Shown in pieces: positions 7,520 through 57,900 of a stretch of 64,000 nt of DNA. The stretch is taken from positions 13,262 to 77,261 of the forward strand of contig CAZDVD010000007.1 of NCBI GenBank assembly GCA_964508765.1. The letters run 5' to 3'. This stretch comes from an uncultured Lentisphaeria bacterium. Lineage in GTDB: Bacteria; Fidelibacterota; UBA8477; JABMPR01. The first letter of the stretch is position 1. The number at the start of each line of letters is the position of its first letter. The notes beneath the pieces are model-generated. The model saw only the letters and a program-made list of their open reading frames with translations. It was not told the origin of the DNA and did no database searches. A program made the translations under genes and the position numbers.

Positions 7520-7539
7520 AACAATACCCTTAGTTTTAT

Positions 7540-9068: not shown

Positions 9069-9460
9069 GGCCCATAAAAACAATATGATATACCATATAA
9101 ACCAGAGCTGTATTTTTGTTGATAATCAGATATCCAAAGTTAAGAAGTGTTTAACTGATGGTAGATAAAGTATCCTTATAAACAATTCTAAGATGGCGCG
9201 TATAAAAAGGGCTTATGTGGATAACTGAAATGTTGATATATGGAATAACCCCATTTCTTTTTCATAAGTTATTAAAAAACAGGTTCCAATCATTATCGTA
9301 TTCGAAGATGGAATGTTTATAACTAATACCAGGACTTTAAAAAAATGGGTTTTTGCCCACAAGAATGTAGATGACACATTCAGGAATGCAGAAAAAAGTA
9401 GAGATGAATCTCTCCAATAAAAGGGAGAGATAAGAATTATTTTATTTTGTGATGAGTGAG

Positions 9461-38577: not shown

Positions 38578-41500
38578 TTAATCTAACTTCAGGTTGGGAA
38601 TTGTGATAAAATACTTTACCCCTTCGCGGGTTGATGTTTCAAGCTCACCAAAAAGCTGGAGATCAACGATATCATGTATGATCTGCATACCCAGCGTCTC
38701 AAAAGTACTGAGGTCAACACTCTCAGGCATGCCCACACCATTGTCTCCGATTTCGATAGTGAGACCCCCTTCTCCATAAGGCTGAGTTCGGATGAGGATT
38801 TTACCATCTCGCTGGTCTGGGAAGGCGTATTTCAAGGCATTGCTGACGATTTCATTTATCACAAGCCCCAGAGGAATGGCAGTTTGAATATTTACTGGAA
38901 TAGTAGCGGATTGACAATCAAGTATGATTTCACCCAGGGTTGTTTTGTAGGCGAGAACGAGACGATCAACCAGCTTTTCGAGATAGGTGTCCAGCATGAT
39001 CTCAGCCAGGTTTCTGGAGCGATACAGGAGGTCGTGCACCATGCCCATGCTGTAGATCCGGTTGGTCATTTCATCCACGACGGCCTGGGTTTCAGTGTTC
39101 TTGGTTTTCATGCCCTGCATCTCAAGTAACCCAACAATGACCTGCATGTTGTTCTTGGTGCGGTGATAGACTTCCTTGAGGAGAACTTCTTTTTCTTGCA
39201 CGCTGGCCTGAAGCTGGAGCTCGCGGTCTTTTAACTCGCTGGTTTGTTTTTGAATCAACTCATCAGCTTGAGCTCTCACTAATGCTCCACCAATCTGATT
39301 GGCAAAAATTTTCAACTTAGGCAAGTCGTCTTCTTCGAACTTTTCAGGTGTATAACTTTGAAGCGTGAACAACCCGATTTGGACACCTTCCCAGAAAATG
39401 GGAACAAAAACCAACGACTGACTATGTCGTGAATTATCTCCAAAAGGAGAAATAGAATATTTTGCTTCGAATTCTTTACGGTTAAACAAAACGGGTGTTG
39501 GCAAGACGAGGGTTGTCGCTTCGTTTTTTATGTCCAGGGCAATTGCTTCTGTCTCGACCTCAATCGGTTTATCCTCTCCGGCAAACGTGTCTTGTAAAAA
39601 CAACCCGACAGCTAGATTTTTGTCGAGATCGATTTTATATAAGGCGAAGGCGTCATACCCAAAAAGGTTGTGAAGCAGAGAAGCAGCGATTATTCCAACC
39701 TCGCGCGGCTCCAGTGAGACGGTGAGGTTACGGGCAAGCCGACGAAGTGAATCCCGAAAAACCTCCTCCTCTTTTTTTTCAGTTACGTCCTGAAGAGATG
39801 TTAGAAAGGCCTTCGGCTTATTGTTTTTGTCAAAATGAGGAAGGTTGCGGATGTCCAGAATATGGTCTCGACCATCGGGTCCCCTCAGCGTTTGCATATA
39901 AGAAAGTTGCTCACCCGCGGGGATTTTTGCAAGATAGGGTTTCATCTCCTGATAGATATCAGGCGGAATGATTTGAGCAAAAGATTTGCCAATAACATCA
40001 GACTTTTTGTAGCCATACCAGTTAGCATAGGTCTCATTTACATAAAGATATTTTTCATTCATGTCGGTATAAGAGAATAAGCCGGGAATCGTATCAACAA
40101 TCAGTTCAAGGAGTTCTTTGTTTTCAGCAATTTCCTTGCGCGCTGACTCGATCTCGCTCACGTTATCCATCTGCACCAGAATAGCCAGGGTCTGGCCATC
40201 ATCACCTCTCACTGGAATCATGGTGATGATAAAGTCCATTTCGCCCAGCCTTGAGGAAATATAGTGATGGGAAAAATTGCAAACCTCACCCTTTAATAGT
40301 TTTGGTAGATATTTTGACCCCAGGGCAAGTTCCTTGGAGGGGATGATCTTTTTAAGGGGTGGTCCGATCAGATTGGTGCTGTCGGTGCCCATCAGTTTTG
40401 CTGTAGCCTGATTGACATATAAGACGGATAAATCGAGATCAAGCAGGAAGAGGTAGCTGGTTAAATGTCCGGTGATAACTTCAAGTTGTTGCTGACTTTT
40501 TTCCAGCTGTTCGCGGGCAGTCACTCTATCATGAATATCATTAAAAGAGAGTAGGATAAGGGTTTTATCGGCCTGTTTAACAGGAACTCCACTGCCCTCA
40601 ACCCACCGTTCCTCCCCAAGCAGGGTGAGGTATTTATGCTCTCGAACCCCTTCAATTGGCGTCCCTGTTTCCAACAGGTGCTCAAGTCCCTCAAAAACCG
40701 CCTCGCGGAAATCGGGGTGGACCAAACGAAAAAGATCCATACCCAGGACTTCATCCAGGGTTTTGGCTCCTGCAAAATCAAGAGCAGCTTGATTGGCATC
40801 CAACAAGACACCTTTGTCGTGGAGCACCATGGCTGTTGGTGAATACTTAAAGGCTCTCCGATATCTTTCTTCACTATTTAGCAAAGCTTCGCGTGTCATC
40901 AGCTCGCTGGTTACATCCCGAAAGGAAGTCATAATTACGACCTCATCCTGGTGTTTGATTGGCACTGCCATGACTTCCACATCGCGAACCTCGCCAGTGG
41001 CAATAATGAATTTCTGTTTCATCAACTCATTTTGGACATTAGATGTCAGAAGTTCATTTATGCGAAGACGCGAGTCCTCAATTGAAGAGGGATGAATAAA
41101 TTCAGAAAGAGAAATGTTCAGGTATTTATCAGGATTGTCTGCCTTGAAAAACCTGATGGCAGCCTGGTTGGCAGCAAGAACGACTTTCCCGTCATGAACG
41201 ACAATAGGGTCAGGCGAATTGTTAAATAGGGTTTCATAGCGATCCTCGGCGGCTTTTAGGTCAGAATAATCCATTAAGGTGCCAACAAAGCCAGCGGGCT
41301 CTCCTTGAGCATCCAGGTAGCGTGCTTTGCGAATCAGAACTTGTCGTATTTCCCCAGAAGCGTGGAGATATTCTGAAGCATAATACTGTCGGTCGTTACT
41401 CTGGAGAAGCTTCTCATCTTCTCGAGCTACCTGTTTTGAGGTTTTTGAATTCCATACCTCTGTCACTGTTTTGCCAAGCATTTCTTCCCGGGTTTTTCCG

Positions 41501-42528
41501 AAAAATTTCAAGTAGGCATCATTGAGCATGGTGTAGCGACCCTCTTGATCCTTGGCATACATTGGGGTTGGCGTGGCATCAAAAAGGGCTGTGATCTGGT
41601 TTTTCTGATCAAGGAGCAATTCATTTGTGACATTCCTTTCAGAGAGATCGCGAACAATACTCACGAGAGTCCCGTCAGAAAGCTTTCTGGAATTCATCTC
41701 GATGGGGAGATGATGACCGTCTTTTGTTCGGAAAATGCGTTCAGCCAATATGGTCAAGCCCGCTTCCATGAGATCGTAACGGAGGGGCTTTTTTATTAAA
41801 ATATCGGGCTCAAACAATTCCGACAAATTCATCTGGAGGAGTTCTTTGTTGGAATATCCAAGTAAACGTGTAGCCGCGACATTCGCTTGAATTATCTGAC
41901 CCTGAAGATCTGCTTTCAGGATGATGTCGGCTGCTTGATCGATCAGTTCACGATGGTTTCTTTCGCTTGCCTCCAGGGCAGCCTCTTTTTGTTTCAGGCT
42001 GTCATGTAGCTGGGCGTGAAAAAGGGCTAGAGAGAGCCTGGCTGACAGAAGGTAAATGATTTCCTGTGTTTCAGGTAAAACACCATCCAGTTGACGAGAA
42101 CCAATATTGAGGGAACCGACAACCTCATCACCAATAACCAAGGGAACACCATAAAAAGACTGAATGCCAGCATCGATCAGGGCGGTTACCACTGAAGTTG
42201 GGTTGGGCAGGCTGGAAATATCGGCTACATATTTTGGCTTTATATTTTGTTGCTGCTTTTGCCCGGATGGGGCTGGAATAGAGTGTTTATCTCCTGATGA
42301 AAGGTGGGGAATAGAGGTGTCTTTTGTAAAAACTTCCAGAGACTGGTTGAAAATGTCATTAAAAGTGATGGAGACACGTTCAAGTGTTAAATGGGCATCG
42401 AAAAAAGACAGGGCTTTATTCGTGACGCTTTTTATTTCTGGCCATGAGATGGCCTGGTCGAAATCCAGGAGCAGGCGAACAGAACGTTGGTTATCAGACA
42501 TAAATATTTTCTCCACAGTAAGGGACAA
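38578..42528 (-). CDS. Multi-sensor histidine kinase with GAF and multiple PAS domains and a HisKA_2-type kinase core
   Basis: 1316 aa with repeated PAS-like segments and GAF. The H-box HRTKNNMQVIVGLLEMQ (HisKA_2) is followed by HATPase motifs (EIVSNALKYAF, GDNGVG). Confidence 0.8.
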   Translation of the reverse strand: MSLTVEKIFMSDNQRSVRLLLDFDQAISWPEIKSVTNKALSFFDAHLTLERVSITFNDIFNQSLEVFTKDTSIPHLSSGDKHSIPAPSGQKQQQNIKPKYVADISSLPNPTSVVTALIDAGIQSFYGVPLVIGDEVVGSLNIGSRQLDGVLPETQEIIYLLSARLSLALFHAQLHDSLKQKEAALEASERNHRELIDQAADIILKADLQGQIIQANVAATRLLGYSNKELLQMNLSELFEPDILIKKPLRYDLMEAGLTILAERIFRTKDGHHLPIEMNSRKLSDGTLVSIVRDLSERNVTNELLLDQKNQITALFDATPTPMYAKDQEGRYTMLNDAYLKFFGKTREEMLGKTVTEVWNSKTSKQVAREDEKLLQSNDRQYYASEYLHASGEIRQVLIRKARYLDAQGEPAGFVGTLMDYSDLKAAEDRYETLFNNSPDPIVVHDGKVVLAANQAAIRFFKADNPDKYLNISLSEFIHPSSIEDSRLRINELLTSNVQNELMKQKFIIATGEVRDVEVMAVPIKHQDEVVIMTSFRDVTSELMTREALLNSEERYRRAFKYSPTAMVLHDKGVLLDANQAALDFAGAKTLDEVLGMDLFRLVHPDFREAVFEGLEHLLETGTPIEGVREHKYLTLLGEERWVEGSGVPVKQADKTLILLSFNDIHDRVTAREQLEKSQQQLEVITGHLTSYLFLLDLDLSVLYVNQATAKLMGTDSTNLIGPPLKKIIPSKELALGSKYLPKLLKGEVCNFSHHYISSRLGEMDFIITMIPVRGDDGQTLAILVQMDNVSEIESARKEIAENKELLELIVDTIPGLFSYTDMNEKYLYVNETYANWYGYKKSDVIGKSFAQIIPPDIYQEMKPYLAKIPAGEQLSYMQTLRGPDGRDHILDIRNLPHFDKNNKPKAFLTSLQDVTEKKEEEVFRDSLRRLARNLTVSLEPREVGIIAASLLHNLFGYDAFALYKIDLDKNLAVGLFLQDTFAGEDKPIEVETEAIALDIKNEATTLVLPTPVLFNRKEFEAKYSISPFGDNSRHSQSLVFVPIFWEGVQIGLFTLQSYTPEKFEEDDLPKLKIFANQIGGALVRAQADELIQKQTSELKDRELQLQASVQEKEVLLKEVYHRTKNNMQVIVGLLEMQGMKTKNTETQAVVDEMTNRIYSMGMVHDLLYRSRNLAEIMLDTYLEKLVDRLVLAYKTTLGEIILDCQSATIPVNIQTAIPLGLVINEIVSNALKYAFPDQRDGKILIRTQPYGEGGLTIEIGDNGVGMPESVDLSTFETLGMQIIHDIVDLQLFGELETSTREGVKYFITIPNLKLD

Positions 42529-42658
42529 ATTTCACTCTGGGGCTGAATTAATGCAAACCAATAAGCACAGTATTGTCAGGAATGGGAGATGCTTGTTTAA
42601 GCTTGAATAAGAGCATTTTCGTCCTTAATTGGGTGAGAATTTTAAGAAGAGGGAAAAT

Positions 42659-43504
42659 ATGAAAACATTACTGAAAGCAACACTCACACTCACTGTTATA
42701 CTGGCCAGCCTGGTTATGGCCCAAGAAGAAGCTCCTGCTACCTGGGAAAAGTCTGTTCTTGGGGGTCTAAACCTGACCCAAACCGGTTTTGATAACTGGA
42801 CAGCAGGCGGGGAAAATGCATATGCCTGGCAAATGAACCTGAATTATAAATTTATTCAGGACCTGCAGAAGACCAAATGGTCCAATACGGGAAAATTCCT
42901 TTACGGCGCCACCAAAACAGGTGATGCTGACATGCGTAAGTCTGCAGATGAAATCAAGCTGGAAAGTGTTCTGACTTATAAGTTGGGATCTAAGATCAAT
43001 CCATTTATCGCAGTAACGGGCGAAACTCAATTCGCTGCTGGCATGGATTACAGTACGGATTCTTCGTTTCAGATTTCGGCCTTTCTTGATCCAGGTTATT
43101 TCAGAGAGAGTTTTGGAGCTGGTTATGATATCAGCGAAGGGTTGGCTACGCGTCTGGGCTTATCATTTAAACAGACCGTGACGACTGACTATACATCACC
43201 CTATACTGATGATCCAGCTACCACCAAGATTGAAACCATGAAAAGCGAGTTTGGTGCAGAGTCTGTTACGGATCTCACTTACAATATTTCAGAGACAGCA
43301 GTGTATGTTTCCAAGCTGGAATTGTTTTCTGCTTTTTCTGCCTTCGATGAAATTGATGCAAACTGGGACAACACAATTACAGTAAAAGTATCTGATTACA
43401 TCAATATGAATGTGAACTTCAAGATGGTGTATGACAAAGATATTTCTGTGAAACGGCAGATAAAACAATCCATGGCATTTGGTTTAAACTACACCTTTAT
43501 ATAA
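42659..43504 (+). CDS. Outer-membrane beta-barrel protein (DUF3078-like)
   Basis: Signal peptide, alternating beta-strand pattern, aromatic C-terminus (YTFI). The start is probably MKTLL at 42659. Confidence 0.5.
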   Translation: MKTLLKATLTLTVILASLVMAQEEAPATWEKSVLGGLNLTQTGFDNWTAGGENAYAWQMNLNYKFIQDLQKTKWSNTGKFLYGATKTGDADMRKSADEIKLESVLTYKLGSKINPFIAVTGETQFAAGMDYSTDSSFQISAFLDPGYFRESFGAGYDISEGLATRLGLSFKQTVTTDYTSPYTDDPATTKIETMKSEFGAESVTDLTYNISETAVYVSKLELFSAFSAFDEIDANWDNTITVKVSDYINMNVNFKMVYDKDISVKRQIKQSMAFGLNYTFI

Positions 43505-43525
43505 AACCAAAATACATTTTAAGAA

Positions 43526-43556
43526 AAGCCCGCCTTTATGGTGGGCTTTTTTATTT
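43526..43556 (+). terminator. Rho-independent terminator
   Basis: AAAGCCCGCC-TTTAT-GGTGGGCTTT followed by a T-run. Confidence 0.6.
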
Positions 43557-43811
43557 GCATCTCAGAGAGTTTTCGATTAACATAGCTTCGTCGAGAGGCA
43601 ACCATCTTCAAACAAACTATCCGAAGAACATCAGAGTTGTGTAGCTACAAACCAGTTGTTGGTTTATGGTAAATTGTTCCACCGTGTGGACCAAGGAGCC
43701 TCTTTATACAAAACAAGACTCCATCAATCAAAATGGGGTAAACAATCAAAAAGCGAACAGGGTAGAGTTTTATCGTAAAGAATAAACTCACCCAAAAAGA
43801 AAGGGACGATT

Positions 43812-44045
43812 ATGAATCGTTTTAGAAGTATCCTTTTAAGTGGGCTGGTGGCGCTTTTGATGGTAGGAATGGTAAGTGCAGCTGAGGATCAAGGAGTCAT
43901 TGCAGAAAATGATGAAATTGATTCGTTCATAGGTGTATATATGGGTGGCTGGGCCGGCGATGTTTGTGTTGATGAGTTAGAGGGGGGCTGTGTCAAAATC
44001 TGGATCAGTTTTGATTTAGAGTGGATCAAGAGACTGTTGTTCTAA
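43812..44045 (+). CDS. Small secreted protein (77 aa) with Sec signal peptide and a CVDELEGGC motif
   Basis: N-terminal signal MNRFRSILLSGLVALLMVGMVSA. The mature 50-aa acidic peptide has two Cys and an amphipathic C-terminus. Confidence 0.4.
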   Translation: MNRFRSILLSGLVALLMVGMVSAAEDQGVIAENDEIDSFIGVYMGGWAGDVCVDELEGGCVKIWISFDLEWIKRLLF

Positions 44046-44055
44046 ATAATAGGAG

Positions 44056-44081
44056 GCGGGGTGGCATTCATGTCACCCCGC
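44056..44081 (+). other. Strong GC stem-loop (GCGGGGTG ... CACCCCGC) between the small peptide gene and the next ORF
   Basis: Perfect 8-bp GC-rich stem with a 10-nt loop and no U-tract. It looks like a processing or stability or attenuator hairpin. Confidence 0.4.
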
Positions 44082-44094
44082 TGAAAAGCGAATA

Positions 44095-45255
44095 ATGAAA
44101 AGTTTAATTGTTGTTTTCCTGGTAACATGCTCACTTTATGGAAAGATAGAAATAATTGAGTTGTCAGAAGAATTAAGTGAAAGCGTTATTAACAAGCGGT
44201 GGACAAGCATGGCGAGTGGCGGTTTATACCTAGACAGCTTGTCGTTATACATTTCAGATAAAAATATGATTTACATTCAATCACGAGACAGGCATAGCGG
44301 GGTTAAAGTTTTAAATGTTTCAATGAATGGATCCGAAGCATTTAAAGTGATCAGAATATTGCCGACGAGGAAAAGTTTTTATTTGACTCTCTTCATGGGC
44401 AACGGAAGGCTTTATCTCTCCCATGTAGCAAGGGACGGTCTAACCACAAAGCGGGTGATTGAAAAACATGGTTATGCAGGAAAAATGACCTGGTTTAATG
44501 AGCGAGTTTATGTTGGTGGATTGTATTGGCCGGAATATGCTCGATACTTAGATAAATTTAAAGCTCAAAGGGGAAACAAAATTTCAGAAATGAATCGTCG
44601 AAATTACGAGGAGTTATTTCAAACAAAAAGGGGCTTTACGCTAACAGTATATGACAATGCTCTAACGGGGGTTGATTCTGTTAACGAGCTCTCCAGGACA
44701 GGCGAGGATGCACACGGATTTATGTTATTGTATGTGCCGCAACCATACGACATAACCACTAAAGGTGACATCTTTCTCATAGATAATGAAAAAGGCTATG
44801 TTGTAGAGAAGTATCGCACAAATCAAGGAGTGGTCTCTGAATTCAAAATTGAAAACCAAAATTATATAGTGTTGCCTGAAATACTCACGAATACTAGCGC
44901 GAAGCAATTGAAGGTATCTGATAAAGGCTATTCTGTCGCTTATGGGTTATATGAGAAAAATGATTTTATTTTGAGCTGCTTTTATCAGTCTTCTCCTCCG
45001 CCGAGCATGCCAGAACCACCTTTCTATTATGATGTAAGCACAAAAACGGGCGCGCTTGTCAAAACCGGGGTGCTTCCTTATCCTATCGTAGGCGAAGACA
45101 AAAAAGAAAAAGTGTTCTTTTACAAAAAGATAGAAGGCGGTTGGTTTGGGAGCGATAGGGTTTTTCTTATCGGGATGACTATATCAGATATCATTGACGG
45201 GAAAGCCACAACAGCCAACATAGATGCCGCAGTGATTAAATACATCAGTGGTTAA
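44095..45255 (+). CDS. Hypothetical secreted protein (386 aa)
   Basis: Signal peptide MKSLIVVFLVTCSLYG. Low-GC ORF, no recognisable family. Confidence 0.5.
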   Translation: MKSLIVVFLVTCSLYGKIEIIELSEELSESVINKRWTSMASGGLYLDSLSLYISDKNMIYIQSRDRHSGVKVLNVSMNGSEAFKVIRILPTRKSFYLTLFMGNGRLYLSHVARDGLTTKRVIEKHGYAGKMTWFNERVYVGGLYWPEYARYLDKFKAQRGNKISEMNRRNYEELFQTKRGFTLTVYDNALTGVDSVNELSRTGEDAHGFMLLYVPQPYDITTKGDIFLIDNEKGYVVEKYRTNQGVVSEFKIENQNYIVLPEILTNTSAKQLKVSDKGYSVAYGLYEKNDFILSCFYQSSPPPSMPEPPFYYDVSTKTGALVKTGVLPYPIVGEDKKEKVFFYKKIEGGWFGSDRVFLIGMTISDIIDGKATTANIDAAVIKYISG

Positions 45256-45715
45256 GGGGAAACGAGAAATGTTGTCCTTAACGCTCAAGCATAGAGTAGT
45301 CTGGATATTACGCTTGTCAATTTCTGTTATCTTTCTGTTGCTAGGGACTGTTAAAACCGTTGTTCTTCTTAAATTCGGTTTAGAGCCCTATAGAGAAATT
45401 GTTTTTGCTGCTGGTTTGCCTGGAATAGTTAAATATTATGGATTGGTTGCAGTTCTGGTCGAGTTTTATTTGGCCGTCGGTCTCTGGACAAGTAGACATT
45501 ATTATTCGGCGATCATTCTGACGTTGATAATGACTGTTGCAGGATCAATAATTAATATCGCCTTGCTTATTTTTAAAATTAACTCTGAATGTGGCTGTGG
45601 ATTATTGGGAGACAATGAAGGCTGGCTGCTTGTGCAAAAGGGTGTCATTGCTATAGCCCTGGTTTTCCTGTACAAAAAGAAGTCAATCTTCTTTAAGCGG
45701 CCAATGCACTTATAA
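45248..45715 (+). CDS. MauE/DoxX-like small membrane protein with a CGCG motif
   Basis: Four TM helices and a conserved-looking NSECGCGLLG motif reminiscent of the MauE (methylamine utilisation) / DoxX family. Confidence 0.4.
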   Translation: MVKGKREMLSLTLKHRVVWILRLSISVIFLLLGTVKTVVLLKFGLEPYREIVFAAGLPGIVKYYGLVAVLVEFYLAVGLWTSRHYYSAIILTLIMTVAGSIINIALLIFKINSECGCGLLGDNEGWLLVQKGVIAIALVFLYKKKSIFFKRPMHL

Positions 45716-45862
45716 ACAGTTAATATTCACATAATAACATGCGGTATTATAGTGTTTCGTTCGATGCCTGGGTTAGCCGGCAACAGGAAAAGCTGCTGAC
45801 AAGCGGCCGAAAGAGTACCTGGGTGGGACAGTGATGAATCAAGCCCTAATGATATGAACCTT

Positions 45863-48832
45863 CTAATCCAGGGTGATCAGCTTTTCGAATAGTTTTTCAT
45901 TCTGTTTTAATTTGTCTTCATTACCGTACACACATATTGGACTATTTCCTAAAATATCGGATACCATTCTCTCATAAGACTTCACATCTTCAAGAGATGT
46001 AGATAAAACTGCGGCTCTTTCAGCCTGTAGCTTCTCATGCGTTAATTTAGTGAAGTAACGAGCCACAGCAGTATTGCCTCGTTGTGATGGAGTTTGGGGT
46101 CGATCCATGCCAGAAATGGTTCCAATGATAAAACGTGTCATTTCATTTTGGTCCACATCAAGTGTCTCTAAAAAGCCAGGTGTATTGGCATAGTTCTCCA
46201 GCGTGCTGGACAGATTCGGATCACGATATGATCCAAAGTACACTTGACCCGTCGGAGAGAAACGCGCAAAACCGCCATAGGCTCCACCAATTACGCGAAC
46301 CTGATTCTTGAGCCATTCCCGGGATATGATTTGGTTGAGGACACGAATCTTACCGTCCCACTCATAACCAAGATCAGTGAAGTCTGCTCCCTGAAGAACA
46401 TAATTAACCTTTGAGGCTGCCATGAGACCTTCGTTTCTGACTGCTGACTCAAGCTTCCACTCCTGAAATTCAAGCTTTTGTTTTCCAAGACCTTTCGAGA
46501 AACCCTTGAGCTCTTTTCTGAAAACACTCATTGCATCATCAGAACATGTAGTGGAGGCGATCAGATTCTTTTTATTGAAGAGTAAATAAGAAACATTCTT
46601 CAACTCCTTTATTACATCCCCATGCTTACTTTCGAAATTCTCTACCAGGTCACTGATGAACCAATAGTATTCCAGACCACCAGTGAGCTCATTAAGCATG
46701 CCTGCCTTGGTCGTGTATGAAAAAAGGCGCGTCCTGGCATAGCCCAGACCATCCCGTTTCACGTTGGCAGATAAGCGCGAATGATGTCGCGTCAACACGT
46801 CTTCAATGCGCTCGATATCATCAAGTTGAGAATGCCTCAGAATCTCCTCTGAAAAATCAAAAACCTTGGACTGATCTGAGGAGATGGCTTTCGTGGATAG
46901 AACAAACTTTGGGATCAGCTTATCATCATCACGGTTTTCAAGATAGCTTGATAAATACGTGCTAAACCCACCAAGGTGTGTATCCAGGGCATTGTCAAGC
47001 TCACCAAAGGTATAGTTTTCAGTGCTTATAGAACCCAGCAAGGTGGCCAGGAGAGAAGCGTACGGAAGTTGCTCCTCAGTCAAAACACGAAGATCAAAAA
47101 ATAATCTGATGTAACTGATATCATTGGTGAAGGTATCATAATGCAAATAGGGTATACGTGAAACGCGTGATTCATCTGCCACAAACCAGTCAGCATCTGG
47201 ATTAATATCTTCGAGATCCAGGAGGGGGATGGTTGCCAGGGCTTCAGGTGTGTCCTCTGATTTTTGATATTTTACCAGCATGGCGGTATGCTCAACCAGT
47301 TGGGTTACTTCATCAGTCGAAAGGCTTGCTTTATAAGCCGCCAACTCTGCATTGGTACGACTATCATTTTCGCCCTCAAGACCAGGTTGAGGATTTAAAG
47401 TGAAGAGCTGGGCATGGGGGTTGTTGACTATTTGCTGGGTAATAAGGTTTTCTAGATAACCTGCTGGAAGCGCTGCTTTGAATGCTGCAAGTGGCTTTTC
47501 GTATTCCAGGCCACTAAAGGGTTCGTCAGCCCAGAACCAGCTGGTCAGAGCTTTGCGGTTGTAGTAAAGCCCTTTTTGGGGCGTGTTTCCTTCACGGAGA
47601 TTGAATTCCATACGGTTCAAAATTCCAGTCACTGCCTCTTTATCAAGTCCGTCCCTGGCTACTTTCTCCAGGGTTTCGAAAACGATCTGTTTGAATTTTT
47701 CTGCTTCATCAGGGTTGGCATTTTGAACCTGCACGTGCAAAACATTCTGCTTTAAATCATCCACCCAGGCCCCCACATCTTTACCGATTTCGGCTTCCTG
47801 GAGAGCCAGGCGGACTGGGGCAGATTCATTGTTGAAAAGCGCTTGCGTTAAGACCCTTAAACCCAGACTAAGCTGTTGATCTGTACTCAGACCAATGACG
47901 AAAGAAAGTGAGAGATAAGTGTTACCCTCCAGTTCAGAATCTTCTGTAGCGGAATAGACGCCACTCCCTGTTCGCATTGCTTCAAAGGCTTGCTGTAACG
48001 GAATATCAATAACTTGATCAGATTTCGTATAGTTGGAGAGGTAATGCTCATCGATAAAGGCCAGCTCTGACTTAGTATCACCATCACCATACAGAAAAAT
48101 ATATGAATTGGAAGGATGATAATATTTACGGTGAAAATTTATAAAGTCGTCATAGGTCAACGTGGGGATTGAATCAGGATACCCGCCTGACGAAAACCGG
48201 TAGGGTGTATCTGGAAAAAGCTGTTGGTCTACGAGGTAACCCAGTTCCCGGGTTGGGCTTGAAAAGGCGCCCTTCATCTCATTATATACCACACCCTTAT
48301 AAGTCATGTTCGAATCGGCATGTTCAAGATCGTGGTGCCAGCCCTCCTGTTCCAGAATACGGGAATCTTCATAAATAAGGGGATTGAACACGGCATCGAG
48401 ATAGATATGCATGAGGGAGCGGAAATCTTTATCATTCATACTGGATACAGGATAGAGTGTAATATCGCTGCCCGTCATGGCGTTGAGAAACGTGTTTAGA
48501 GAACCCTTGGACAAAATATCAAAAGGACTCTTTACAGGAAAATTTTTGGAGCCATTTAGAACAGAGTGTTCCATAATATGGGGCGTTCCAGCATCTGACT
48601 CAGTAACGGTTTTAAAGGTTATGCAGAAGGTCTTGTTCAAATCATCATTTGAAATTTTTAGCAAACGAGCACCTGAACGCTCGTGTTGAAACAACAGGCA
48701 TTCTGCATCAACTTCTTTCACGAAGCGTTTTTCAATAAGCTTAAAACCTGACATGTTGTCTCCTGTGTGTGTTTGAGCCACTAGGGAAATACCTATCAAT
48801 GTTACAATGAGCAAAGTAATGATTCTGGGCAT
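45863..48832 (-). CDS. M16C family zinc metalloprotease (insulinase/PreP-like, about 990 aa)
   Basis: Inverted zinc motif HIMEH (GTPHIMEHSVLNGS) and length typical of M16C. The start is probably MPRIITLL (signal peptide) at 48832. Confidence 0.8.
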   Translation of the reverse strand: MPRIITLLIVTLIGISLVAQTHTGDNMSGFKLIEKRFVKEVDAECLLFQHERSGARLLKISNDDLNKTFCITFKTVTESDAGTPHIMEHSVLNGSKNFPVKSPFDILSKGSLNTFLNAMTGSDITLYPVSSMNDKDFRSLMHIYLDAVFNPLIYEDSRILEQEGWHHDLEHADSNMTYKGVVYNEMKGAFSSPTRELGYLVDQQLFPDTPYRFSSGGYPDSIPTLTYDDFINFHRKYYHPSNSYIFLYGDGDTKSELAFIDEHYLSNYTKSDQVIDIPLQQAFEAMRTGSGVYSATEDSELEGNTYLSLSFVIGLSTDQQLSLGLRVLTQALFNNESAPVRLALQEAEIGKDVGAWVDDLKQNVLHVQVQNANPDEAEKFKQIVFETLEKVARDGLDKEAVTGILNRMEFNLREGNTPQKGLYYNRKALTSWFWADEPFSGLEYEKPLAAFKAALPAGYLENLITQQIVNNPHAQLFTLNPQPGLEGENDSRTNAELAAYKASLSTDEVTQLVEHTAMLVKYQKSEDTPEALATIPLLDLEDINPDADWFVADESRVSRIPYLHYDTFTNDISYIRLFFDLRVLTEEQLPYASLLATLLGSISTENYTFGELDNALDTHLGGFSTYLSSYLENRDDDKLIPKFVLSTKAISSDQSKVFDFSEEILRHSQLDDIERIEDVLTRHHSRLSANVKRDGLGYARTRLFSYTTKAGMLNELTGGLEYYWFISDLVENFESKHGDVIKELKNVSYLLFNKKNLIASTTCSDDAMSVFRKELKGFSKGLGKQKLEFQEWKLESAVRNEGLMAASKVNYVLQGADFTDLGYEWDGKIRVLNQIISREWLKNQVRVIGGAYGGFARFSPTGQVYFGSYRDPNLSSTLENYANTPGFLETLDVDQNEMTRFIIGTISGMDRPQTPSQRGNTAVARYFTKLTHEKLQAERAAVLSTSLEDVKSYERMVSDILGNSPICVYGNEDKLKQNEKLFEKLITLD

Positions 48833-48902
48833 GTTTATTCCCTTTATGTAATGTGTTGATACTTTCATGCTAGCCCCGGTATGGTGGTGATATCTTGGGT
48901 AG

Positions 48903-51900
48903 CTAATCAACCACAACCCTGAAGCTTAAAGTCTTTTGGTCATTACCGTCAGGGTCAGAAGCCAAATCTGTCGTGAGTTCATACCTGATACCTGTGACGG
49001 GAGCCGTCTGGGATGAATTGTATTCATTAACGGTTTCGTGTTGAAAAGTGATGGTCATTCCTGTACCTGCCGCTGAGTTCTCGACGTAGGTCGTCTGGAC
49101 GGGAATAGCTTCATCAATAACCACACTTTTTGCTATACCTACACCTGAGTTCCAATAATAAACGGTGTATGTCAGAGTGTCCCCCGGAGCGGAAACAGTC
49201 CCCTCCTCCCCATTCACATAAAGTATCATTTCAAGTAAAGGTTCGGGCATGGGAAGTGCGGTTCCGCTAATGCTGAAGGTATAGGGGTTATCATCTTCGT
49301 CATCTGAGGCAATACTTATCGTGGCCGTCCGTACACCCTCACCACTAGGAGTAAATTTGATGGTAAAGTCAGTGGTTCCGCCACCCGCAGAGATCGTCGC
49401 TTGTGGCACAAGGGTGAGCGTAAAATCACTGGCGTGGGCACCAGATACGAAAATATAAGGAGATCCACCTGTCAGCGTAAGGACGGCGCTTCCCGTATTT
49501 TCAATCGTATAGCTAACCCAGCTGGATGAGTCAAGAATAGTATCCTCAAAGATCGTGCTGTCGGCAACGCTAGGTGCTACATCTTCATTGGCGATGGACA
49601 CGCCATTGCCAAGAATATTTAGTTCAGGACTAGCAATACCGGTACCCTGAATGCTGAAATCAAATGGGTTTTCATCATCGTCATCATTAGCAATACTCAA
49701 ACTGGCTGTTCTTAAACCAACAGCTGTGGGATTAAACGTGATCGTAAAGGCGACTGAATCACCAGGTGCCACCGATGATGCGGCGGGTTGGCTGCTAACC
49801 AGGAAATCTCCTGCATGGGTACCGCTAAGGACCACAAGTGGAGTGCCGCTTAGAGTTAACACTCCACTACCGGTATTTTTCAGATAGAAAGTGTTTTCTT
49901 GTGTGGCAGCCAGAATATCCTTACTGTCGAAGTCAGTATTATCAGTACTGATTGGAGCATTATCTCCATCGGCAATGGACTCACCATTTCCAAAGACAGA
50001 TATTTCTGGAGTCGCCAGACCAAGACCCTGAATCGTAAAGGAGTATGGATCTTCATCAAGATCGTTGTTGGCGATTGACACAATCGCTTGTCTTAGACCA
50101 TCCCCATTAGGATCAAAAGTGATAGTAAAAGAGGTAGAGTTGTTTGTAGCAATGGGCGTAGCCGGTACGCTTGTAACGGCAAAGTCAGCAGCATTGTCGC
50201 CTGTGATACTCACATAGGTTGATGGGTTCGACAGAACCAGGTCAGCATTACCCGTGTTGAGGATACTGAAAATCTGAGCCTGACTACCCGTTAGAATATC
50301 TTCTGACCCAAAATCAGTAAAATCAGTCGCAGCAGGAGTATTGTCTCCAGTGACGATCACATTGTCATTACCTTTAACCTCAATCTCTGAAGCAAGCCCG
50401 TTACCCCGAATATCGAAGGTAAATGGATTTTCATCAGAATCCGTGTTGTAAATTGTGACGGTTGCCGCTTTCAATCCTTCAGTATCTGGAATAAAACAGA
50501 TTTCAAAACTGGTGCTGTCATTTGAAGGCACGGTTTCTGAGGGCTCCGTTAAGACATAAAAATCACTGGCATTGGTTCCCGAGAGAGACACCTTTGGGGT
50601 GCCATTCAAGGTCAATGTAGCGCCATTGCCATTATATATCTTGAAGGAATGGATGACTGAGTCGACCTGGGCATCCGTTGAACCAAAATCAGTAAAATCA
50701 GAAGCAGATGGTGTGTTATCACCATCAACAATAAGAACGCCATTCCCTCGAATACTTATTTCAGGCTCAGCTTGTTGATACACACCGACATCAATGCTGG
50801 AGGTAAAAATGTTTGAGCTAATCACCAAGGCATCTGATTCACCAGTAGAGGAGTTAATATCACTGTCTATAAAATCATCAGCACCAGCATCCTGGGTTGT
50901 AAAGACATAACCTGCAGCCAGTCCTGTGAAATAAAGCCGATAGGTTTGAGGCGTGAGTCCTGTGAAGGAGAAATACCCCGCAGCGTCAGTGGTTGTGGTT
51001 GCCACACTGGCACCACCATCGATCTTGATCTCAACATCAATTCCAGGAACACCGCTTTCACCAACGTCTTGTAGACCATCTTCATCAGAATCAAGCCAGA
51101 CAAAATCTCCAATACCAGTGGCTATAAATCCAGCATCTCTAGTATTGTCTGTGGCGCTAATGCCCAGAGAAAAGGTAGCTGTTTTGCCACTGTTGGCAGG
51201 ATCAGCATCACTATCAAGGGCATTATCTCCACCTTGATCCATTTGAGTAAGCGAAAAACCTGTGGGTGGATTTGTAAAGGTGAGGTAATAGTCACCTGAA
51301 GCAAGACCCTCGAAGGCATAGGACCCATCAGACCCACTCAAAACAGAACCGATTGAATTGTCTCCAGAGTCAAACAGAGAAACAGTAATACCAGCCATGG
51401 CATCCTCGCCGGCATCCTGGACTCCATCACCATCGTTATCCAGCCAGACCATATTGCCAATAACACCGTCTGATGGACTGGTGCCATTACCCTGAATATC
51501 GAAAACATAGGGGTTTTCGTCTGGATCGTTATTGGCGATAGAAATCGTGGCCGTTCGGACACCAATACTGGAAGGATCAAATTGAATAACAAACGGTGCA
51601 CTATTTCCCGTGGCTATTGAAGATACAGGGGCCGATGTTACTGAAAAATCTGCTGCGTGCACACCAGAAAAGGATATGCTGTCAATGGTAACTCGCAGGT
51701 CGGTATTACCGCTATTGTTAATAGTATAGGTCACAAACTGCAATCCTGTGGTGATATCCACATCGCCAAAGTTAGTGCTGTCAGATACACCCGGAGAGGC
51801 GTCGCCGTTGGTGATGGTTACACCATTGCCAGAAACACTCATTTCCGGCGTCGTGACCCCGATCCCCTGAATAGCAAAGGTGTAGGGGTCTCTGCCTGCG

Positions 51901-54900
51901 GTCTGGTCGCTGTTGCCAATACTGACGATAGCTTTACGAGCTCCTGTTCCAAAGGGATTAAACTCAACAGTGAAGGCTACCGAACTATAGGGGGCCACTA
52001 GTGTAGCCGGGTTGGCGATAACAGTAAAATCACCTGGGTGATCTTCTAGTGGAGTAGCTAGTGGATCACTTGTAATTAAGATTGTGGGGTTGTGGCCAAG
52101 TACCAAATCATCACTACCCGTATTATACACCACAAATTCTTGGGTGGCAGTAAGGCCACCGATAACTTCAACATTACCGAAATCAGTACCATCAGCACTT
52201 GATGGCGAAGGGTCTCCATCGGAAATCACTTGCATATTTCCCTTAACACTCATCTCAGATTGAGAGGTTGGATCATATATACCCGTTCCCTCGATGGTAA
52301 ATGTATAGGGATTTTCATCAGCATCATTGTTTTGGATGGTCAACGTGGCCGTGCGGATTCCCAGAGCAAAGGGTGTAAAGGTGACCTCAAAACTGGTTGT
52401 CGCACTATCAATAGCAATAGAATTAGATGGTATCGAAGTAATGGTGAATTCAGAGGCATTTGTGCCTGAAAAGTCGACATAAGGAGGTGGTCCCGTCAAA
52501 CTCAAGGCAGCATAGCCAATATTTCGAATAACAAAAGTAGCCGTGGCTGGCACGCCTGAAATTTCAGCTGTCCCCATATCCGTAAAGTCGCCACTCATGG
52601 GGAAAATGTCCCCGGATTCAATGACCAGGTTATTTCCCAAAACCTCAATTTCTTCATCGAGGGTTGAGGTGCCAACACCTTGAACAGCAAAACTAAAGGG
52701 GCTCTCGTCAGTATCATCACTGGCAATAAGCACGATGGCCTGTCTTACCCCAGTAGTTGTTGGGTCAAAAGAAACCTGAAAAGTGACCGATCCAGCTGGT
52801 GTTACTGTCGAGCTCCCAGGCTGCTGTGAAACAACAAAGTCACCAGCGTTGGCGCCGGATATCTGGACGATGGGCAAACCAGTTAGAGACAGGGCGCCAG
52901 AACCGACATTCCAAATGGTGAATGAATGGGCGAGAGGTGCAGCAAAAATATCTCTATTCCCAAAGTCTGTCAGATCGCTGGTCGAAGGCGAATCGTTACC
53001 ATCGGCTATATTGTTCAAATTTCCCTGCAAGACAATTTCAGGCACAGACGTTCCTGTTCCCTGGACATCAAAAGTGAAGGGGTTCTCGTCTGGATCACTA
53101 TTTGAAATTGAAATCGTGGCAACTCGCAATCCAACAGCAGTCGGGTCAAATTGAACCGTAAACGTGGTAGAGCCACTTGAAGCTACTGGTGTTGCTGGAG
53201 CCGAAGTGATGGAGAAATCACCAGGGTTGGTGCCGCCAATAATAACTAGGGGTCCTCCCGTTAAGTTGAGAGTTGCTGCCCCTGTGTTCTGTATGGTGAA
53301 CACAGTACTGTTAGTGCCCGTATCAATATCATAACTGCCAAAGTCTGTATCATCTGAAGCAGATGGCGTGTTGTCACCAGAGACGATGTTTTGTCCGTTG
53401 CCCTGAATTGCAATTTCGGGCGCAATTCCGGTTCCCTGAATATCAAAATCATAGGGGTTCTCACCGGGGTCATTGCTTGATATGGAGACAATGGCTGACC
53501 GGAGTCCGTTGTCGCTTGGATCAAAAGTGATCGTAAAGGTTGTGGGGCTACCGGAGGAAATTGTTGTGGCCGGTGCCGAGGTAACGATAAAATCTGAAGC
53601 ATGTGTTCCAGAAATTTCAACAATGGGCGAGCCGTTTAAGGTCAGAACTGCTGCACCAGAAGTGTTTGCAACGGTGAAGGTTACCGTCACATCGCCACTA
53701 GCAGCGGACACTGAGCCAAAATCTGTAGAGTCAGATGTACTTGGAGATGTATCACCATCCACAATTTCAGTACTATTGCCTGAAACACTGATATCAGGTG
53801 TGGCAGTTTGAGTCATACCAGCATCAATAGAAGTATTAAAGGTGTTGGTGCTTACTGTGAATTGATCAGAGATTCCAGTTGTTGCGTTCACATCACTGTC
53901 AACATCATCATTGGCGCCGGAGTTTTGGGAGACAAACTGATAACCTCCGGGCAGGTTGCTAACTATGATTCTGTAGTTAGCAGGAGAAACAAACTTGAAG
54001 CAATATTTACCATAAGCATCTGATGTGGTTGCATCAATCACGTTGCTGGTATTGGCGGCATCAACGAGTTGGACCGTGACACCAGGAACTCCAGGCTCCC
54101 CATAATCCTGATCACCATTGTTGTTGAGATCGTCCCAAATAAAATCACCTACTCCTGTTGACTTATAACCGGCGTCCTGGCCTTCTTCAATGAGACCAAC
54201 ACCAACAAAGAAATTTGCAGTCTTGCCAGTGGTAGGATCTGGATCACTGTCATTTACATCATCTCCGCCCTGATTTTGGAGTGTGAGTGTACAACCTGCC
54301 GGGGCATTGGTGAAATGGAGATAGTATTCAGAAGGCTCTAAACTGGTAAAGGAGTATGCTCCATTTTGGTCTGTGACCGTAGAGGCAATTAAGGAATTAT
54401 CAATACCGTACAAATCAATTGTAATACCGGGTGCGCCAGGCTCATTTGCATCCTGAATTCCATCTGCATCGCTATCAACCCAGACAAAGTCACCGATACT
54501 ACCCGTGGAAGGAAGGGGCGCCGGAACCAAAGGACAAGATGCACCGTCAGATTTGTTTAAGTCAGCTTCACCCTGACCTACATAGATACTTAATCCAGAA
54601 GGGTCAATCTTGTACATTTTTCCGCTTTGACTATTGGTAGTAAACAGATAACCATCGCTTGCGGTCCACGCAGCGCCATAGTAGGCGCTATTAATATTAT
54701 TGATGAAATCGTCACTTAACCTTCCAGTAATGGGAGTGACGGTTACGGCGTTGGTGTTCGGGTTATACTGATAAAGGTCGGCATTTTGTATCCCGTAAAA
54801 ATTTCCATCTGCATCCAGATAGGCCATGTCGATAGGCAGCCAGGTAGCACCGGAAGTTGTCTGGGTTGTTATAATGCCCGTGCTGGCATCAAAAATACCT

Positions 54901-57900
54901 ATTGTACCACCAGAGGCATCCCAGAAATACATATTACCCAGAACATCAAAATCGGCTCTCCAGGACAAAAATGGTATGGTTACCGACAATACCTCAATAT
55001 TATAATTGCCATCAATACGGACAATATTATCTCCTGGTACATCACCATCCTGCTCAAAAGCATAGAGCATCCCATCTTCAAGGTTGTAGCCAACGCCATT
55101 GATAGAATATGTAGCACTGGTGGCGATGTTATAAACATATGGGTTAACCGTTGCGTCCATGGCGGCGATATCACCTTCATTACCCCAGATATGGAAAAAT
55201 CGGGATATACAAGGGAAAGGCGTTCCCTCTGTCTTTCCATATCCTGTCAGCCAAAACGTATAGGGGTCCTCATTGATGTCGTTATTCGCAATGGAAACGG
55301 AGACATTGCGGACACCTGTCTGGGCTGGATCAAACTCTATGGTGAAATCAGAACTGCCTCCAGCGGGAATGGAAGATGATGGCATGCTCGTAACCGTGAA
55401 TTCTCCAGTGGCATCGCCACCCAATGCTACGCCGCTGGATAGATCCAGCGTTGAATCACCAGTATTGTATATAGTGTAAGTCGCATATGCTTTCACCAAA
55501 ACAGGATGAACATCCCCAAAATCAGTACTGTCTGAAAGACTGGGTGTGGTGTCGCCACTATAAATGATTTGGTTGTTGCCTCGAACCTCTATTTCTGGAT
55601 AGGACAAACCAAAACCCACAATATCAAAAGTATATGGGTTTTCATCACCATCGTTGTTTTCAATATTTACCACAGCTGTCCGCAATCCTGCAGCAGAAGG
55701 ATTGAAAGAAAAATTAAAAGGCACACTGCCGGAAGGAGCAACGGGTGAGCTTGGTTGAAGCGTAATTGAAAAGTCTGAAGCATTAGGACCAGAAAGCGTT
55801 ACCAGGGGTAAACTGGTTAAAATTAAATCCTCGGTGCCTGTGTTGCTTATCATAAAAGTTTGGGAAAGCGTGCCGCTTGTAATAGAAGTTGACCCAAAAT
55901 CAGTTCCGTCTGAGTTTTCTGGGTTGCTATCACCATTGCTAATACTAATCAAATTTCCTTGCACATCAATCTCATTGAGGGAGGCACCACTACTAATTCC
56001 TGTACCTTGAATTGCAAAGGCATAAATCCCCTCATCCAGATCATCATTTAGAATAGTCAAGGTGGCTGAACGCGTGCCTGAAGTGAGTGGATCGAATGCA
56101 ACCTGAAAGCTTGTGCTTCCACTAGAGGCGATGGGAGTGCTGGGAGCGCTCGCGAGACTAAAGTCACCTGCATGGGTGCCACTGATGGCCACCAGTGGCC
56201 AGGAGTCGGTGAGATTTAGTGGAGCGGGACCTGTATTCTCAATGGTGTAGGTTACGATGTGTGTTGTGCCACCAACCAGGGCGGATCCAAATTCCGTGGA
56301 ATCACTGGTTGAAGGTGATGAAGCTCCATTGGCGATGGAACGACCACTACCCTGAATATCAATTTCAGGGTTGATTGTTCCTGTTCCTCGTATCGCAAAA
56401 GTATAAGGACTCTCGTCGGCATCATCATTGGTTATGGAAACCGATGCCTGGCGTAATCCAGTTGTAGGCGGATCAAAAGTGATCTGGAAAGTTTGTGTTC
56501 CACCCTGAGCAGCAACCGTCGCCGATGCAGGTTGTTGGCTTACAGTAAAGTCCGAGGCTTGGGTTCCAAAAACGGTAACATAGGGAGGTCCAGTGAGGGT
56601 TAAATCTCCAGATCCAGAATTGGCAATAGTAAAAGTGCTTACCGTGAAACCACCATTGTTAACATCTGTGTCTCCAAAATCAGAATGGTTGACCAGTGAA
56701 GTTGATGTGGTTCCGTCAGCAATTGAGACGCTATTTCCAGACACATCCATTTCAGGTGTTACTGATCCAGTTCCTTGAATGGCAAAAGTATAGGGGTTTT
56801 CATCATCATCATTATTGTCTATTGAAACCACGGCATTACGATTCCCGGCGATACTGGGATCAAACTGGATGACAAAATCATCAGAACTAGAAATGCCTAT
56901 GGTTGCACTGGGTTGCGTTGTAACGGTGAAGTCTGATACTGCGTCTCCAGAAATTAAAACGGTGCCCAGGTATAGATTGCCGCCACCAGTGTTGCTGATT
57001 GTAAAGGTATGATTAACGCTTCCCGTGACAATATCTGCACTGCCAAAGTAAGAGTTATCTGAAACACTGGGAGTGCTGTCATTACTATAGATTGTGTTGC
57101 CATTGCCAATCAGGCTCATTTCTGGTGGCGGGACACCTTCGCCCTGAATCGAAAAGGTGTAAGGGTTTTCATTGGAATCATTGTTGTCAATTGTTACCAG
57201 GGCTGATCGAGAGCCAATGGCTGACGGATCGAACTCGATAACAAAGGTGCTGATTCCACCGCCGGCAACAGGACTTGAGGGTTGTGATGTCACAGTAAAG
57301 TCTGAAGCGTGGGTGCCGCTAATGGCTACAGCAGGAGAACCGCTGAGCACCAGGTTTGGATCACCATCATTGAATATGGTAAATGTATGGGAGCTTGTAC
57401 CTGAGGTATAGGAAAGACTATCAAAATCAGTATCGTCAGTGGTTGTGGGAGTGGCATCTCCATTTGGAATAGAGTTGCTATTCCCTTGAATGTCAATTTC
57501 AACTGGCAGGTAAATACCAGCATCGACGTGGGTAATGGTAGTATTTCTTGTGGTGGTGTAAGCGATGGTGGCACCCGTGGAAGGGTTGGCATCACTATCG
57601 ATATTGTCATTTGTCCCTTGATCTTGAGGACTAAAGAGGTATCCAGAAGATAAACCGCTGAAAGTTGCGCTGTAGGTTTTATTCTGTCTTAGGTCGGCGC
57701 TTATCCAGGAGCCATCACTGGCAGTGGTTGTAGTTGCGTTGTACGTGATACTCACGCCAATAATCGTTACAGTAATTCCCGAGACAGCGACTTCGCCGGC
57801 ATCCTGTATTCCATTTGCATTTGAATCAATCCAAACATTTCCACCCAGGTATTCTGCTGCCTGAACGGCCCCGGGAAAAAACAGGGAAAACAATACCACA

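Follow-up and report, generated by a model that had tools for sequence, protein, structure and literature searches.

A conserved three-gene unit encoding a secreted two-cysteine peptide, a predicted β-propeller and a MauE-like membrane protein in Marinimicrobia

Genes and features of the locus

We analysed a 64,000-nucleotide stretch of DNA from an uncultured bacterium (GenBank assembly GCA_964508765.1, contig CAZDVD010000007.1; hereafter the window), in which three consecutive open reading frames (ORFs) on the + strand encode a small exported peptide, a secreted 386 amino acid protein and a MauE-like membrane protein. An earlier note on the same DNA had singled out these ORFs as a compositionally distinct and possibly horizontally acquired module and had proposed a bacteriocin-like or redox-peptide system. 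The three reading frames are present at the lengths it gave (77, 386 and 155 amino acids). According to the ORF list, the pre-peptide gene (77 amino acids) occupies positions 43812-44045 and the gene for the secreted 386 amino acid protein, here called the propeller gene after the predicted fold of its product, positions 44095-45255. The MauE-like gene at 45269-45715 encodes 148 amino acids from an ATG codon, while an alternative GTG start at 45248 gives a protein of 155 amino acids and an overlap with the stop codon of the propeller gene. The ATG at 45269 is probably the true start because an identical 148 amino acid protein exists in public collections. Leader, peptide gene, intercistronic hairpin, propeller gene and MauE-family gene make up a single co-oriented unit, the last two genes of which abut or overlap.

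The 5′ limit of the unit is set by the intrinsic terminator of an upstream DUF3078 gene, a stem followed by T6 at 43522-43552 of the + strand (ΔG -20.8, z -3.7). This terminator, which the earlier note had placed almost identically, is kept in relatives with changes in both stem arms (GCCCGCC/GGTGGGC versus GCCCGTC/GGCGGGC). No terminator was found 3′ of the MauE-like gene, where the next gene is convergent.

The three genes are conserved together in Marinimicrobia and in KSB1-type loci

The genomic contexts compared here are propeller-family loci with readable flanks. The propeller family is small and discrete, with 4 matches in a word-indexed set of 5.8 billion proteins and 49 clusters (35 at E ≤ 1e-30) among 1.84 billion representatives, and its full-length members comprise about 355-406 amino acids. 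A signal-bearing peptide gene with two cysteines precedes the propeller gene in all loci with readable upstream DNA (17 lineages), and a MauE-family gene follows it, mostly overlapping or abutting, in all loci with readable downstream DNA. The trio is kept down to approximately 20-30% identity of the 386 amino acid protein. The earlier note had raised the prospect that the ORFs might not occur together anywhere else; they are instead co-conserved in every readable related locus, including KSB1-type loci with unrelated neighbours. Judged by this pattern of conservation, the three genes form a functional unit and an undescribed operon. Both named members of the propeller family carry the title "hypothetical protein" at NCBI, no description of the cassette was found in the literature searched, and neither the peptide nor the propeller has a family model, so the earlier description of the system as previously undescribed holds.

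Most cassette loci belong to Candidatus Marinimicrobia/Neomarinimicrobiota and one (L013) to candidate division KSB1. The Marinimicrobia loci share recurrent flanks consisting of a PAS histidine kinase, a DUF3078 outer-membrane protein, an M16C peptidase and an adhesin of more than 3000 amino acids. Because these flanks are shared across lineages whose propellers are only 34-48% identical, the cassette is inherited vertically in Marinimicrobia, and its presence at the same chromosomal place in many lineages points to a probable core function. In the non-Marinimicrobia loci L006, L013, L014 and L015 the trio is kept and the flanks are different. In the KSB1 locus L013 the new propeller is represented by two tandem paralogues, and the cassette lies inside a HlyD-OEP-…-AcrB efflux operon (OEP, outer-membrane efflux protein).

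Recent horizontal transfer, one of the origins suggested earlier, was rejected on the basis of conserved synteny and composition. The guanine-cytosine (GC) content of 43812-45715 is 0.400, compared with 0.439 ± 0.029 for same-size windows, placing it at -1.3 standard deviations and at the 9th percentile. GC content at third codon positions is 0.39-0.42 for the three cassette genes and 0.40-0.47 for their neighbours. The description of the module as compositionally distinct is therefore weak, all the more since another part of the window is far lower in GC. This lowest-GC stretch (about 7200-9900, 0.33) carries PhoU and Na/Pi-cotransporter genes on the - strand.

The first gene encodes an exported anionic peptide with a conserved cysteine pair

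The pre-peptide of the window begins with a general secretory (Sec)-type signal with n-, h- and c-regions (MNRFRSILLSGLVALLMVGMVSA|AE, ending …MVGMVSA|AE) and predicted cleavage after VSA23. The resulting mature peptide of 54 residues has a net charge of -9.2 and contains the sequence CVDELEGGC, in agreement with the signal, acidic mature region and cysteine motif reported in the earlier note. Its core follows the pattern IGxYMGGW…C-x7-C…VKIWISFDxEW… and is preceded by a variable acidic linker. An alignment of 15 peptides made with MAFFT, in which the first cysteine of L018 is offset by one column, shows a common architecture of Sec signal, variable polar linker (about 10-20 residues) and [YFH][ILM]G motif. 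The C-x7-C loop, shortened to C-x6-C in two lineages, is kept in 15/15 sequences. The loop is rich in Asp, Glu, Ser, Asn and Gly and contains a conserved tryptophan in one subgroup; no tryptophan is conserved across the peptides, and the cysteines number only two. The C-terminal strand shows a strict alternation of hydrophobic or aromatic residues and often ends in Phe or Trp (VKIWISFDLEW…, IHITFTFTFDFKIPFV, MHIEISFDWDLPW, LHIDWRFIFDIPF), with some peptides ending in Asp, Asn, Arg or Leu. The amphipathic tail noted earlier is present in the window's peptide and is clade-specific, since the peptides of relatives end directly after the alternating, β-strand-like segment (…FDIPF, …DLPW). The presence of two β-prone segments flanking a short, cysteine-bracketed loop suggests that the mature peptide is a disulfide-clamped β-hairpin. 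No relatives of the peptide were found in Pfam, NCBIfam or the PDB, and one KSB1 peptide gave a weak, sub-threshold match to DUF6520 (15.4 bits versus a cut-off of 25.4).

These properties bear on the proposal that the peptide is the precursor of an antimicrobial, that is, a bacteriocin-like toxin or a ribosomally synthesised and post-translationally modified peptide (RiPP), with the propeller or the MauE-like protein, or both, acting as maturase or immunity factor and the whole module being mobile. The arrangement is reminiscent of such systems insofar as a short, precursor-like gene of 77 codons for amino acids lies directly upstream of two co-conserved partners and is followed by a putatively attenuating hairpin. 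Homologues of mauE occur in candidate Streptomyces RiPP clusters (PMC7794033). The cassette is also found in two phyla with different flanks, and the KSB1 locus is embedded in the efflux operon described above. Bacteriocins of the unmodified, disulfide-containing, Sec-dependent kind are expected to be cationic or amphiphilic and patchily distributed on mobile elements, whereas the mature peptides here are all anionic (-2 to -9 at pH 7, 10 computed) and the distribution is syntenic, with a fixed position in Marinimicrobia across deep divergence and an ordinary composition. The peptide core is also better conserved than the propeller (about 76% identity by eye versus 48%, window versus L002), and a search for a second peptide copy in the 64-kb window found none. 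Pfam and NCBIfam searches of the cassette and its immediate flanks returned no class-defining RiPP enzyme (radical SAM, LanB/C/M, YcaO, ATP-grasp or P450), and in cassette and flanks no immunity-type protein, C39 protease or ABC transporter, leaving no immunity candidate beyond the two partners. Finally, what is conserved at the N-terminus is a common Sec signal and not a leader peptide, and the constraint lies at the RNA level, as detailed below. We found no positive evidence for a toxin, and the antimicrobial interpretation offered in the earlier note now appears improbable.

The second gene encodes a predicted six-bladed β-propeller

The 386 amino acid protein carries a Sec signal with cleavage at …SLYG|K, confirming its earlier assignment as a secreted protein. 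Structure prediction with AlphaFold reached a predicted local distance difference test score (pLDDT) of 91.5 and a predicted template modelling score (pTM) of 0.89 when 39 family members were supplied, compared with a pLDDT of 52 with five sequences. In this model the protein is a secreted six-bladed β-propeller with helical insertions. Foldseek agrees on the six-bladed propeller and identifies the Bacteroides DUF4221 protein BVU_1028 (PDB 3s9j) as nearest, followed by BF0058 (4raa), with NHL propellers more distant. The Bacteroides proteins share the six-bladed fold and show no detectable sequence kinship, with an identity to 3s9j of 7-11%. In Bacteroides, genes for six-bladed propellers often have small "NVEALA" peptide genes as neighbours, a parallel that plays no part in the argument made here. 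A profile search of the PDB with the propeller family likewise yielded weak NHL blade matches only.

At the sequence level, no Pfam or NCBIfam match to the 386 amino acid protein was found, and DUF4221, DUF5128, TolB_like or other Pfam propeller families were matched by 0/39 members (E ≤ 1). Homology to DUF5128/TolB_like was considered and rejected given the lack of a Pfam match and an hhalign probability of 2.4% against a DUF5128-like neighbour. Loci L006, L013 and L014 carry an additional, true DUF5128/TolB_like six-bladed propeller (L006 8001-10514; L013 617-10310). The new family is characterised by the motifs D194-S-x-N…R201-x-G and P-x-P-P-Y-Y-Y-D and by conserved polar residues that include D187, D194, S195, R201, D219, Y235, N254, S280, D313 and D335. 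It has no conserved cysteine, several members lacking cysteine altogether, and no conserved histidine cluster.

The third gene encodes a MauE-family membrane protein with an invariant CGCG loop

The third protein matches the Pfam family MauE (PF07291) with 31.4-31.6 bits, above the gathering score of 27, over profile positions 2-125 of 128. Each of the 12 cassette homologues is recognised by the same profile (best E 1.6e-8; list threshold E ≤ 0.1) and comes from the same trio, which disposes of the concern that the protein might be a generic DoxX protein with unrelated neighbours in relatives. The earlier identification of a MauE-like protein with a CGCG motif is thus upheld. Among 12 aligned partners the sequence C108-G-C110-G-L-x-G is invariant within a loop of the form NS[ED]CGCGLxG, as is Glu65 in the second transmembrane segment (TM2), and a GLxPY loop is present. 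Hydropathy indicates four transmembrane segments, and the distribution of Lys and Arg places both termini inside and loops 1 and 3 outside. By hydropathy and the positive-inside rule, the CGCG motif in the acidic third loop is predicted to face the periplasm. A tblastn search of plasmids with the MauE-like protein gave no match.

A role for MauE in forming the disulfides of the small methylamine dehydrogenase subunit has been proposed (PMC7794033). Apart from any mau pathway, mauE homologues were found in candidate RiPP clusters of Streptomyces by decRiPPter, and the authors read this linkage as peptide modification, probably related to disulfides (PMC7794033). The present cassette resembles those clusters in that a short, precursor-like gene adjoins a mauE homologue outside a methylamine pathway (PMC7794033). 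It differs in belonging to another phylum, in having a propeller partner instead of their enzymes and in encoding a precursor with a Sec signal. The protein shares with MauE of the mau cluster its PF07291 membership, four transmembrane segments and linkage to a small exported cysteine-containing polypeptide. In contrast, there is no mauA, mauB, mauD or mauG context in the window and about 17 related loci, and the candidate client is a two-cysteine peptide of about 50 residues rather than the six-disulfide tryptophan tryptophylquinone subunit. The cassette subfamily is defined by the NS[ED]CGCGLxG loop and the TM2 glutamate.

In the mau cluster, mauB encodes a propeller and mauA a small cysteine-rich subunit, next to mauE. 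The gene content of the cassette formally parallels mauB/mauA/mauE, and together with the PF07291 membership this could point to a periplasmic protein similar to methylamine dehydrogenase, in which the propeller is the large subunit and the peptide a small cysteine-containing subunit, perhaps with a peptide-derived cofactor. The heavy subunit of methylamine and aromatic amine dehydrogenases is seven-bladed, however, and their small subunit contains two conserved tryptophans and multiple disulfides, features that find no counterpart in a six-bladed propeller and a peptide with two cysteines and no conserved tryptophan. No mauD- or mauG-like gene lies nearby, and the conserved hairpin between peptide and propeller genes, if attenuating, would imply unequal stoichiometry of the two products. 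Because the predicted fold is six-bladed and DUF4221/NHL-like and a conserved tryptophan is missing, we reject such a heteromer as very unlikely.

A structured leader RNA precedes the peptide gene and extends its conservation into the signal-peptide codons

The region 43553-43811 of the + strand is conserved in the alignment beyond any protein of the cassette. It begins with a putative promoter at 43555-43583 (TTGCAT-17 nt-TAACAT), in which the columns TTTG and TTAAnAT are invariant across loci. The element is a weak σ70 match that a consensus scan missed, and it plausibly represents the promoter of the unit. The leader RNA that follows (43585-43811; about 225 nt) alternates long invariant blocks with hairpins whose stems vary between lineages. 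The blocks comprise GUCGAGAGGCAACCAUCUUCAAACAAAC…GAAGAA, the palindrome GUAGCUAC (43641-43648), CAGUUGUUGG, AAUCAAAAAGCGAACAGGG and the Shine-Dalgarno (SD) sequence GAAAGGG (43799-43805), and the local hairpins lie at approximately 43676-43691, 43719-43738 and 43760-43793. In a nine-sequence alignment 89.8% of the cells of these hairpins are paired, compared with 36-51% for slid partners, and both-sided changes affect 20 pairs versus 8.5±2.1 in shuffles (0/500). The leader hairpins are supported by compensatory changes. Searches with nhmmer detected one leader per locus, always 5′ of the peptide gene (window, 43585-43875, and loci L001, L002, L005, L007-L009, L012, L016, L017, L019, L021 and L022), and nowhere else in the 64-kb window; KSB1-type loci gave no leader match. 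Comparison with Rfam 15 (4227 families) produced no gathering-level match in the window, and within 43400-45900 at E ≤ 1 only sub-threshold matches over the upstream terminator.

Nucleotide-level conservation continues into the signal-peptide codons 7-21 (43830-43874, + strand; ATC CTT TTA AGT GGG CTG GTG GCG CTT TTG ATG GTA GGA ATG GTA), which a codon table shows to be near-identical in 13 loci. Where residues are identical, the same codon is used in 88.6% of cases in codons 7-21 and in 46.3% in the mature part. RNAalifold predicts three helices that would reach into this segment. The first pairs the SD sequence GAAAGGG (43799-43805) with AUCCUUUU (43830-43837) and encloses the AUG, the second joins GCUAC of the palindrome (43644-43648) to GUGGC (43848-43852), and the third connects the 5′ end of the leader, UCGUCGAGAG (43588-43597), with CUUUUGAUGG (43854-43863). 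Such long-range pairing between leader and coding sequence would explain the frozen codons. Folded as a single sequence, leader plus coding sequence surpasses shuffled controls by a modest margin only (z = -2.1). Since the conserved, "leader-like" N-terminus reflects a constraint on the RNA, it is not evidence of a RiPP leader peptide.

The region resembles riboswitch expression platforms and RNA thermometers in its long conserved 5′ leader, covarying hairpins, strongly conserved single-stranded blocks and an SD sequence complementary to a nearby segment. Unlike in those systems, the segment complementary to the SD sequence and the two other partners of the leader are located within the coding region, and there is no Rfam match. 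The palindrome TGTAGCTACA is perfect, and L017 keeps its symmetry by a double change (GCAGCTGC). Beside or instead of being an RNA pairing segment, the palindrome at 43641-43648 could be an operator bound by a protein.

That the leader and roughly the first 65 nt of the ORF are conserved as nucleotide sequence, synonymous sites included, would also be compatible with a small ORF that is untranslated and belongs to a regulatory RNA, either a small RNA or a long leader, controlling the propeller and MauE genes. Past codon 23, however, the ORF evolves as a protein, with synonymous codons varying (46%) and the cysteines, glycines and hydrophobic pattern kept. Its length is maintained with the stop codon at the same place, a good SD sequence lies 6-7 nt 5′ of the peptide ATG, and KSB1 peptides retain the C-x7-C architecture despite unrelated nucleotide sequence and a missing leader. 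An RNA-only function is accordingly a far-fetched explanation, the least probable of those weighed here.

A positionally conserved hairpin separates the peptide gene from its partners

The strong, GC-rich hairpin that the earlier note placed after the peptide gene is located at 44055-44082 (+ strand) and has a 12-bp stem with a ΔG of -25 kcal/mol (z = -4.2, 0/200 shuffles as good). A hairpin occurs between peptide and propeller genes in 13/16 loci, with stems that are unrelated between loci (GCGGGGUGGCA…, GGUGGUGGGAUAG…, GAGGGGUGGU…, GCAAGGGCUGAUA…). That the position is kept while the stem sequences are unrelated argues for selection on the structure itself. The hairpin has no U-tract on its 3′ side (downstream sequence GAAAAGCGAAUAAUG), and the terminator scan made no call there. 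Because this organism uses U-tract terminators, as at 43522-43552, the element is not an ordinary terminator. The missing U-tract instead suggests that the hairpin most likely functions as a partial attenuator or 3′ stabiliser that would raise the level of the peptide transcript above those of the two helper genes.

Stem-loops behind the gene of a small, abundant product are known from lantibiotic lanA genes and from pilin and puf operons. The present element is similar in that a strong stem-loop stands at a conserved position behind a small gene and ahead of accessory genes. It differs by its missing U-tract and by its absence from some loci, and a comparable function is suggested here by analogy.

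A possible module for an exported, disulfide-clamped peptide

Taken together, we tentatively favour, at somewhat less than even confidence, the view that the conserved operon works as a module devoted to making an exported, disulfide-clamped β-hairpin peptide. In this model the leader would gate translation of the peptide, with the SD sequence pairing with codons 7-9 and the leader 5′ end and palindrome pairing with codons 13-18. The Sec system would export the pre-peptide, and after cleavage behind an A-x-A motif a mature, anionic product of 38-55 residues would remain. Its C-x6/7-C pair may then be oxidised, or kept oxidised, by the CGCG motif of the MauE-like protein on the periplasmic side, so that the [YFH][ILM]G strand and the alternating hydrophobic strand at the C-terminus are clamped into a β-hairpin. 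The propeller, having no cysteines in need of service, may be the chaperone, processing enzyme or receptor to which the hairpin peptide binds, and the hairpin without U-tract would hold the peptide message above the messages of the two helpers. The mature peptide might be released or attached to the outer membrane, or it might leave through a resistance-nodulation-division (RND) pump, as hinted by the KSB1 context.

The proposed connection between MauE-like protein and peptide is drawn because the cysteine pair of the peptide and the CGCG motif are the only conserved periplasmic thiols of the cassette. The thiol or disulfide chemistry that the earlier note associated with the MauE-like protein is therefore plausible as far as this distribution of cysteines goes, including a propeller free of conserved ones, while catalysis itself is a further step that we infer.

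Several points weigh against the proposed module. A catalytic role of the CGCG motif is suggested by its position and invariance, a PDB search with the MauE-like profile found no solved structure, and the genome might encode, at another site, a general Dsb or VKOR system able to form the disulfide, in which case the MauE-like protein would have another role. Binding of the peptide by the propeller is postulated from gene linkage. The long-range helices between leader and coding sequence are 95-99% paired, with changes that are one-sided and pair-preserving and with no compensatory changes. Finally, 3/16 loci have no intercistronic hairpin.

A bolder form of the proposal would see in the cassette an unrecognised class of periplasmic peptide-maturation system, with the propeller as maturase or carrier, the CGCG MauE protein as dedicated disulfide catalyst and a riboswitch-like RNA reaching into the signal codons. 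We regard this extension as doubtful. The separate elements have precedents in MauE-type proteins that serve small exported polypeptides with cysteines, in stem-loops behind precursor genes and in leaders that sequester the SD sequence. What is new are the propeller family, the peptide family and the candidate RNA motif.

A serious alternative is an envelope-structural role, in which the peptide is a structural or oligomeric β-hairpin whose amphipathic strand inserts into or docks on the outer membrane or the DUF3078 barrel, with the propeller as its periplasmic chaperone or assembly factor and the MauE-like protein as its oxidase. The alternating hydrophobic or aromatic strands ending in Phe or Trp would suit such a role, as would slow evolution and vertical inheritance, which are in keeping with a housekeeping envelope component. 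Major structural subunits, too, are typically made in excess with the help of such a hairpin. The gene for the DUF3078/DUF481 β-barrel outer-membrane protein (42629-43504, + strand; PF11276, 74 bits) moreover directly precedes the cassette in every Marinimicrobia-type locus, also in those whose other flanks have changed (L017, L019), and its product may be a partner of the peptide. On the other hand, the cassette is separated from this gene by a putative promoter of its own and by the terminator, which indicates that the two are not co-transcribed. DUF3078 is absent from the KSB1-type loci L006, L013 and L015, the peptides that end in Asp, Asn, Arg or Leu lack an aromatic terminus, and no precedent was found. 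On balance we hold the envelope-structural role to be unlikely.

If the favoured module for a disulfide-clamped peptide is correct, the MauE family would gain a simple client in the form of a single peptide with a single disulfide, much easier to handle than the small subunit of methylamine dehydrogenase. It would also supply a function for a new propeller family that is related in fold to the numerous exported Bacteroides propellers with no assigned role. In the leader, a candidate regulatory RNA, it would be RNA structure, and not protein function, that freezes the codons of a signal peptide, a caution against reading a "conserved leader peptide" by itself as evidence of a RiPP. Next to nothing is known about the envelope and the secreted products of Marinimicrobia (SAR406), a group of uncultured bacteria that abound in the ocean.

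Neighbouring genes and other features of the window

Within the lowest-GC stretch, about 820 nt (8638-9460) in front of a SurA-like gene form an AT-rich gap that contains no ORFs of at least 120 amino acids and has no Rfam match. Downstream of the cassette and convergent to it lies the M16C peptidase gene (45863-48916, - strand), in accordance with the M16 gene that the earlier note had given as the downstream border. Its PreP-like product of about 1000 amino acids has an N-terminal signal-like segment, and the gene is found in most Marinimicrobia loci and is missing from L019. Peptides of roughly the size of the cassette peptide are substrates of PreP-type enzymes. A 1316 amino acid multi-PAS histidine kinase (38578-42528, - strand) and a 3031 amino acid repetitive surface protein (48903-57998, - strand) are both syntenic in relatives and apparently unrelated to the cassette. 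The counterparts of the surface protein in L007 and L008 contain SdrD_B, GEVED and HYDIN-like immunoglobulin domains.

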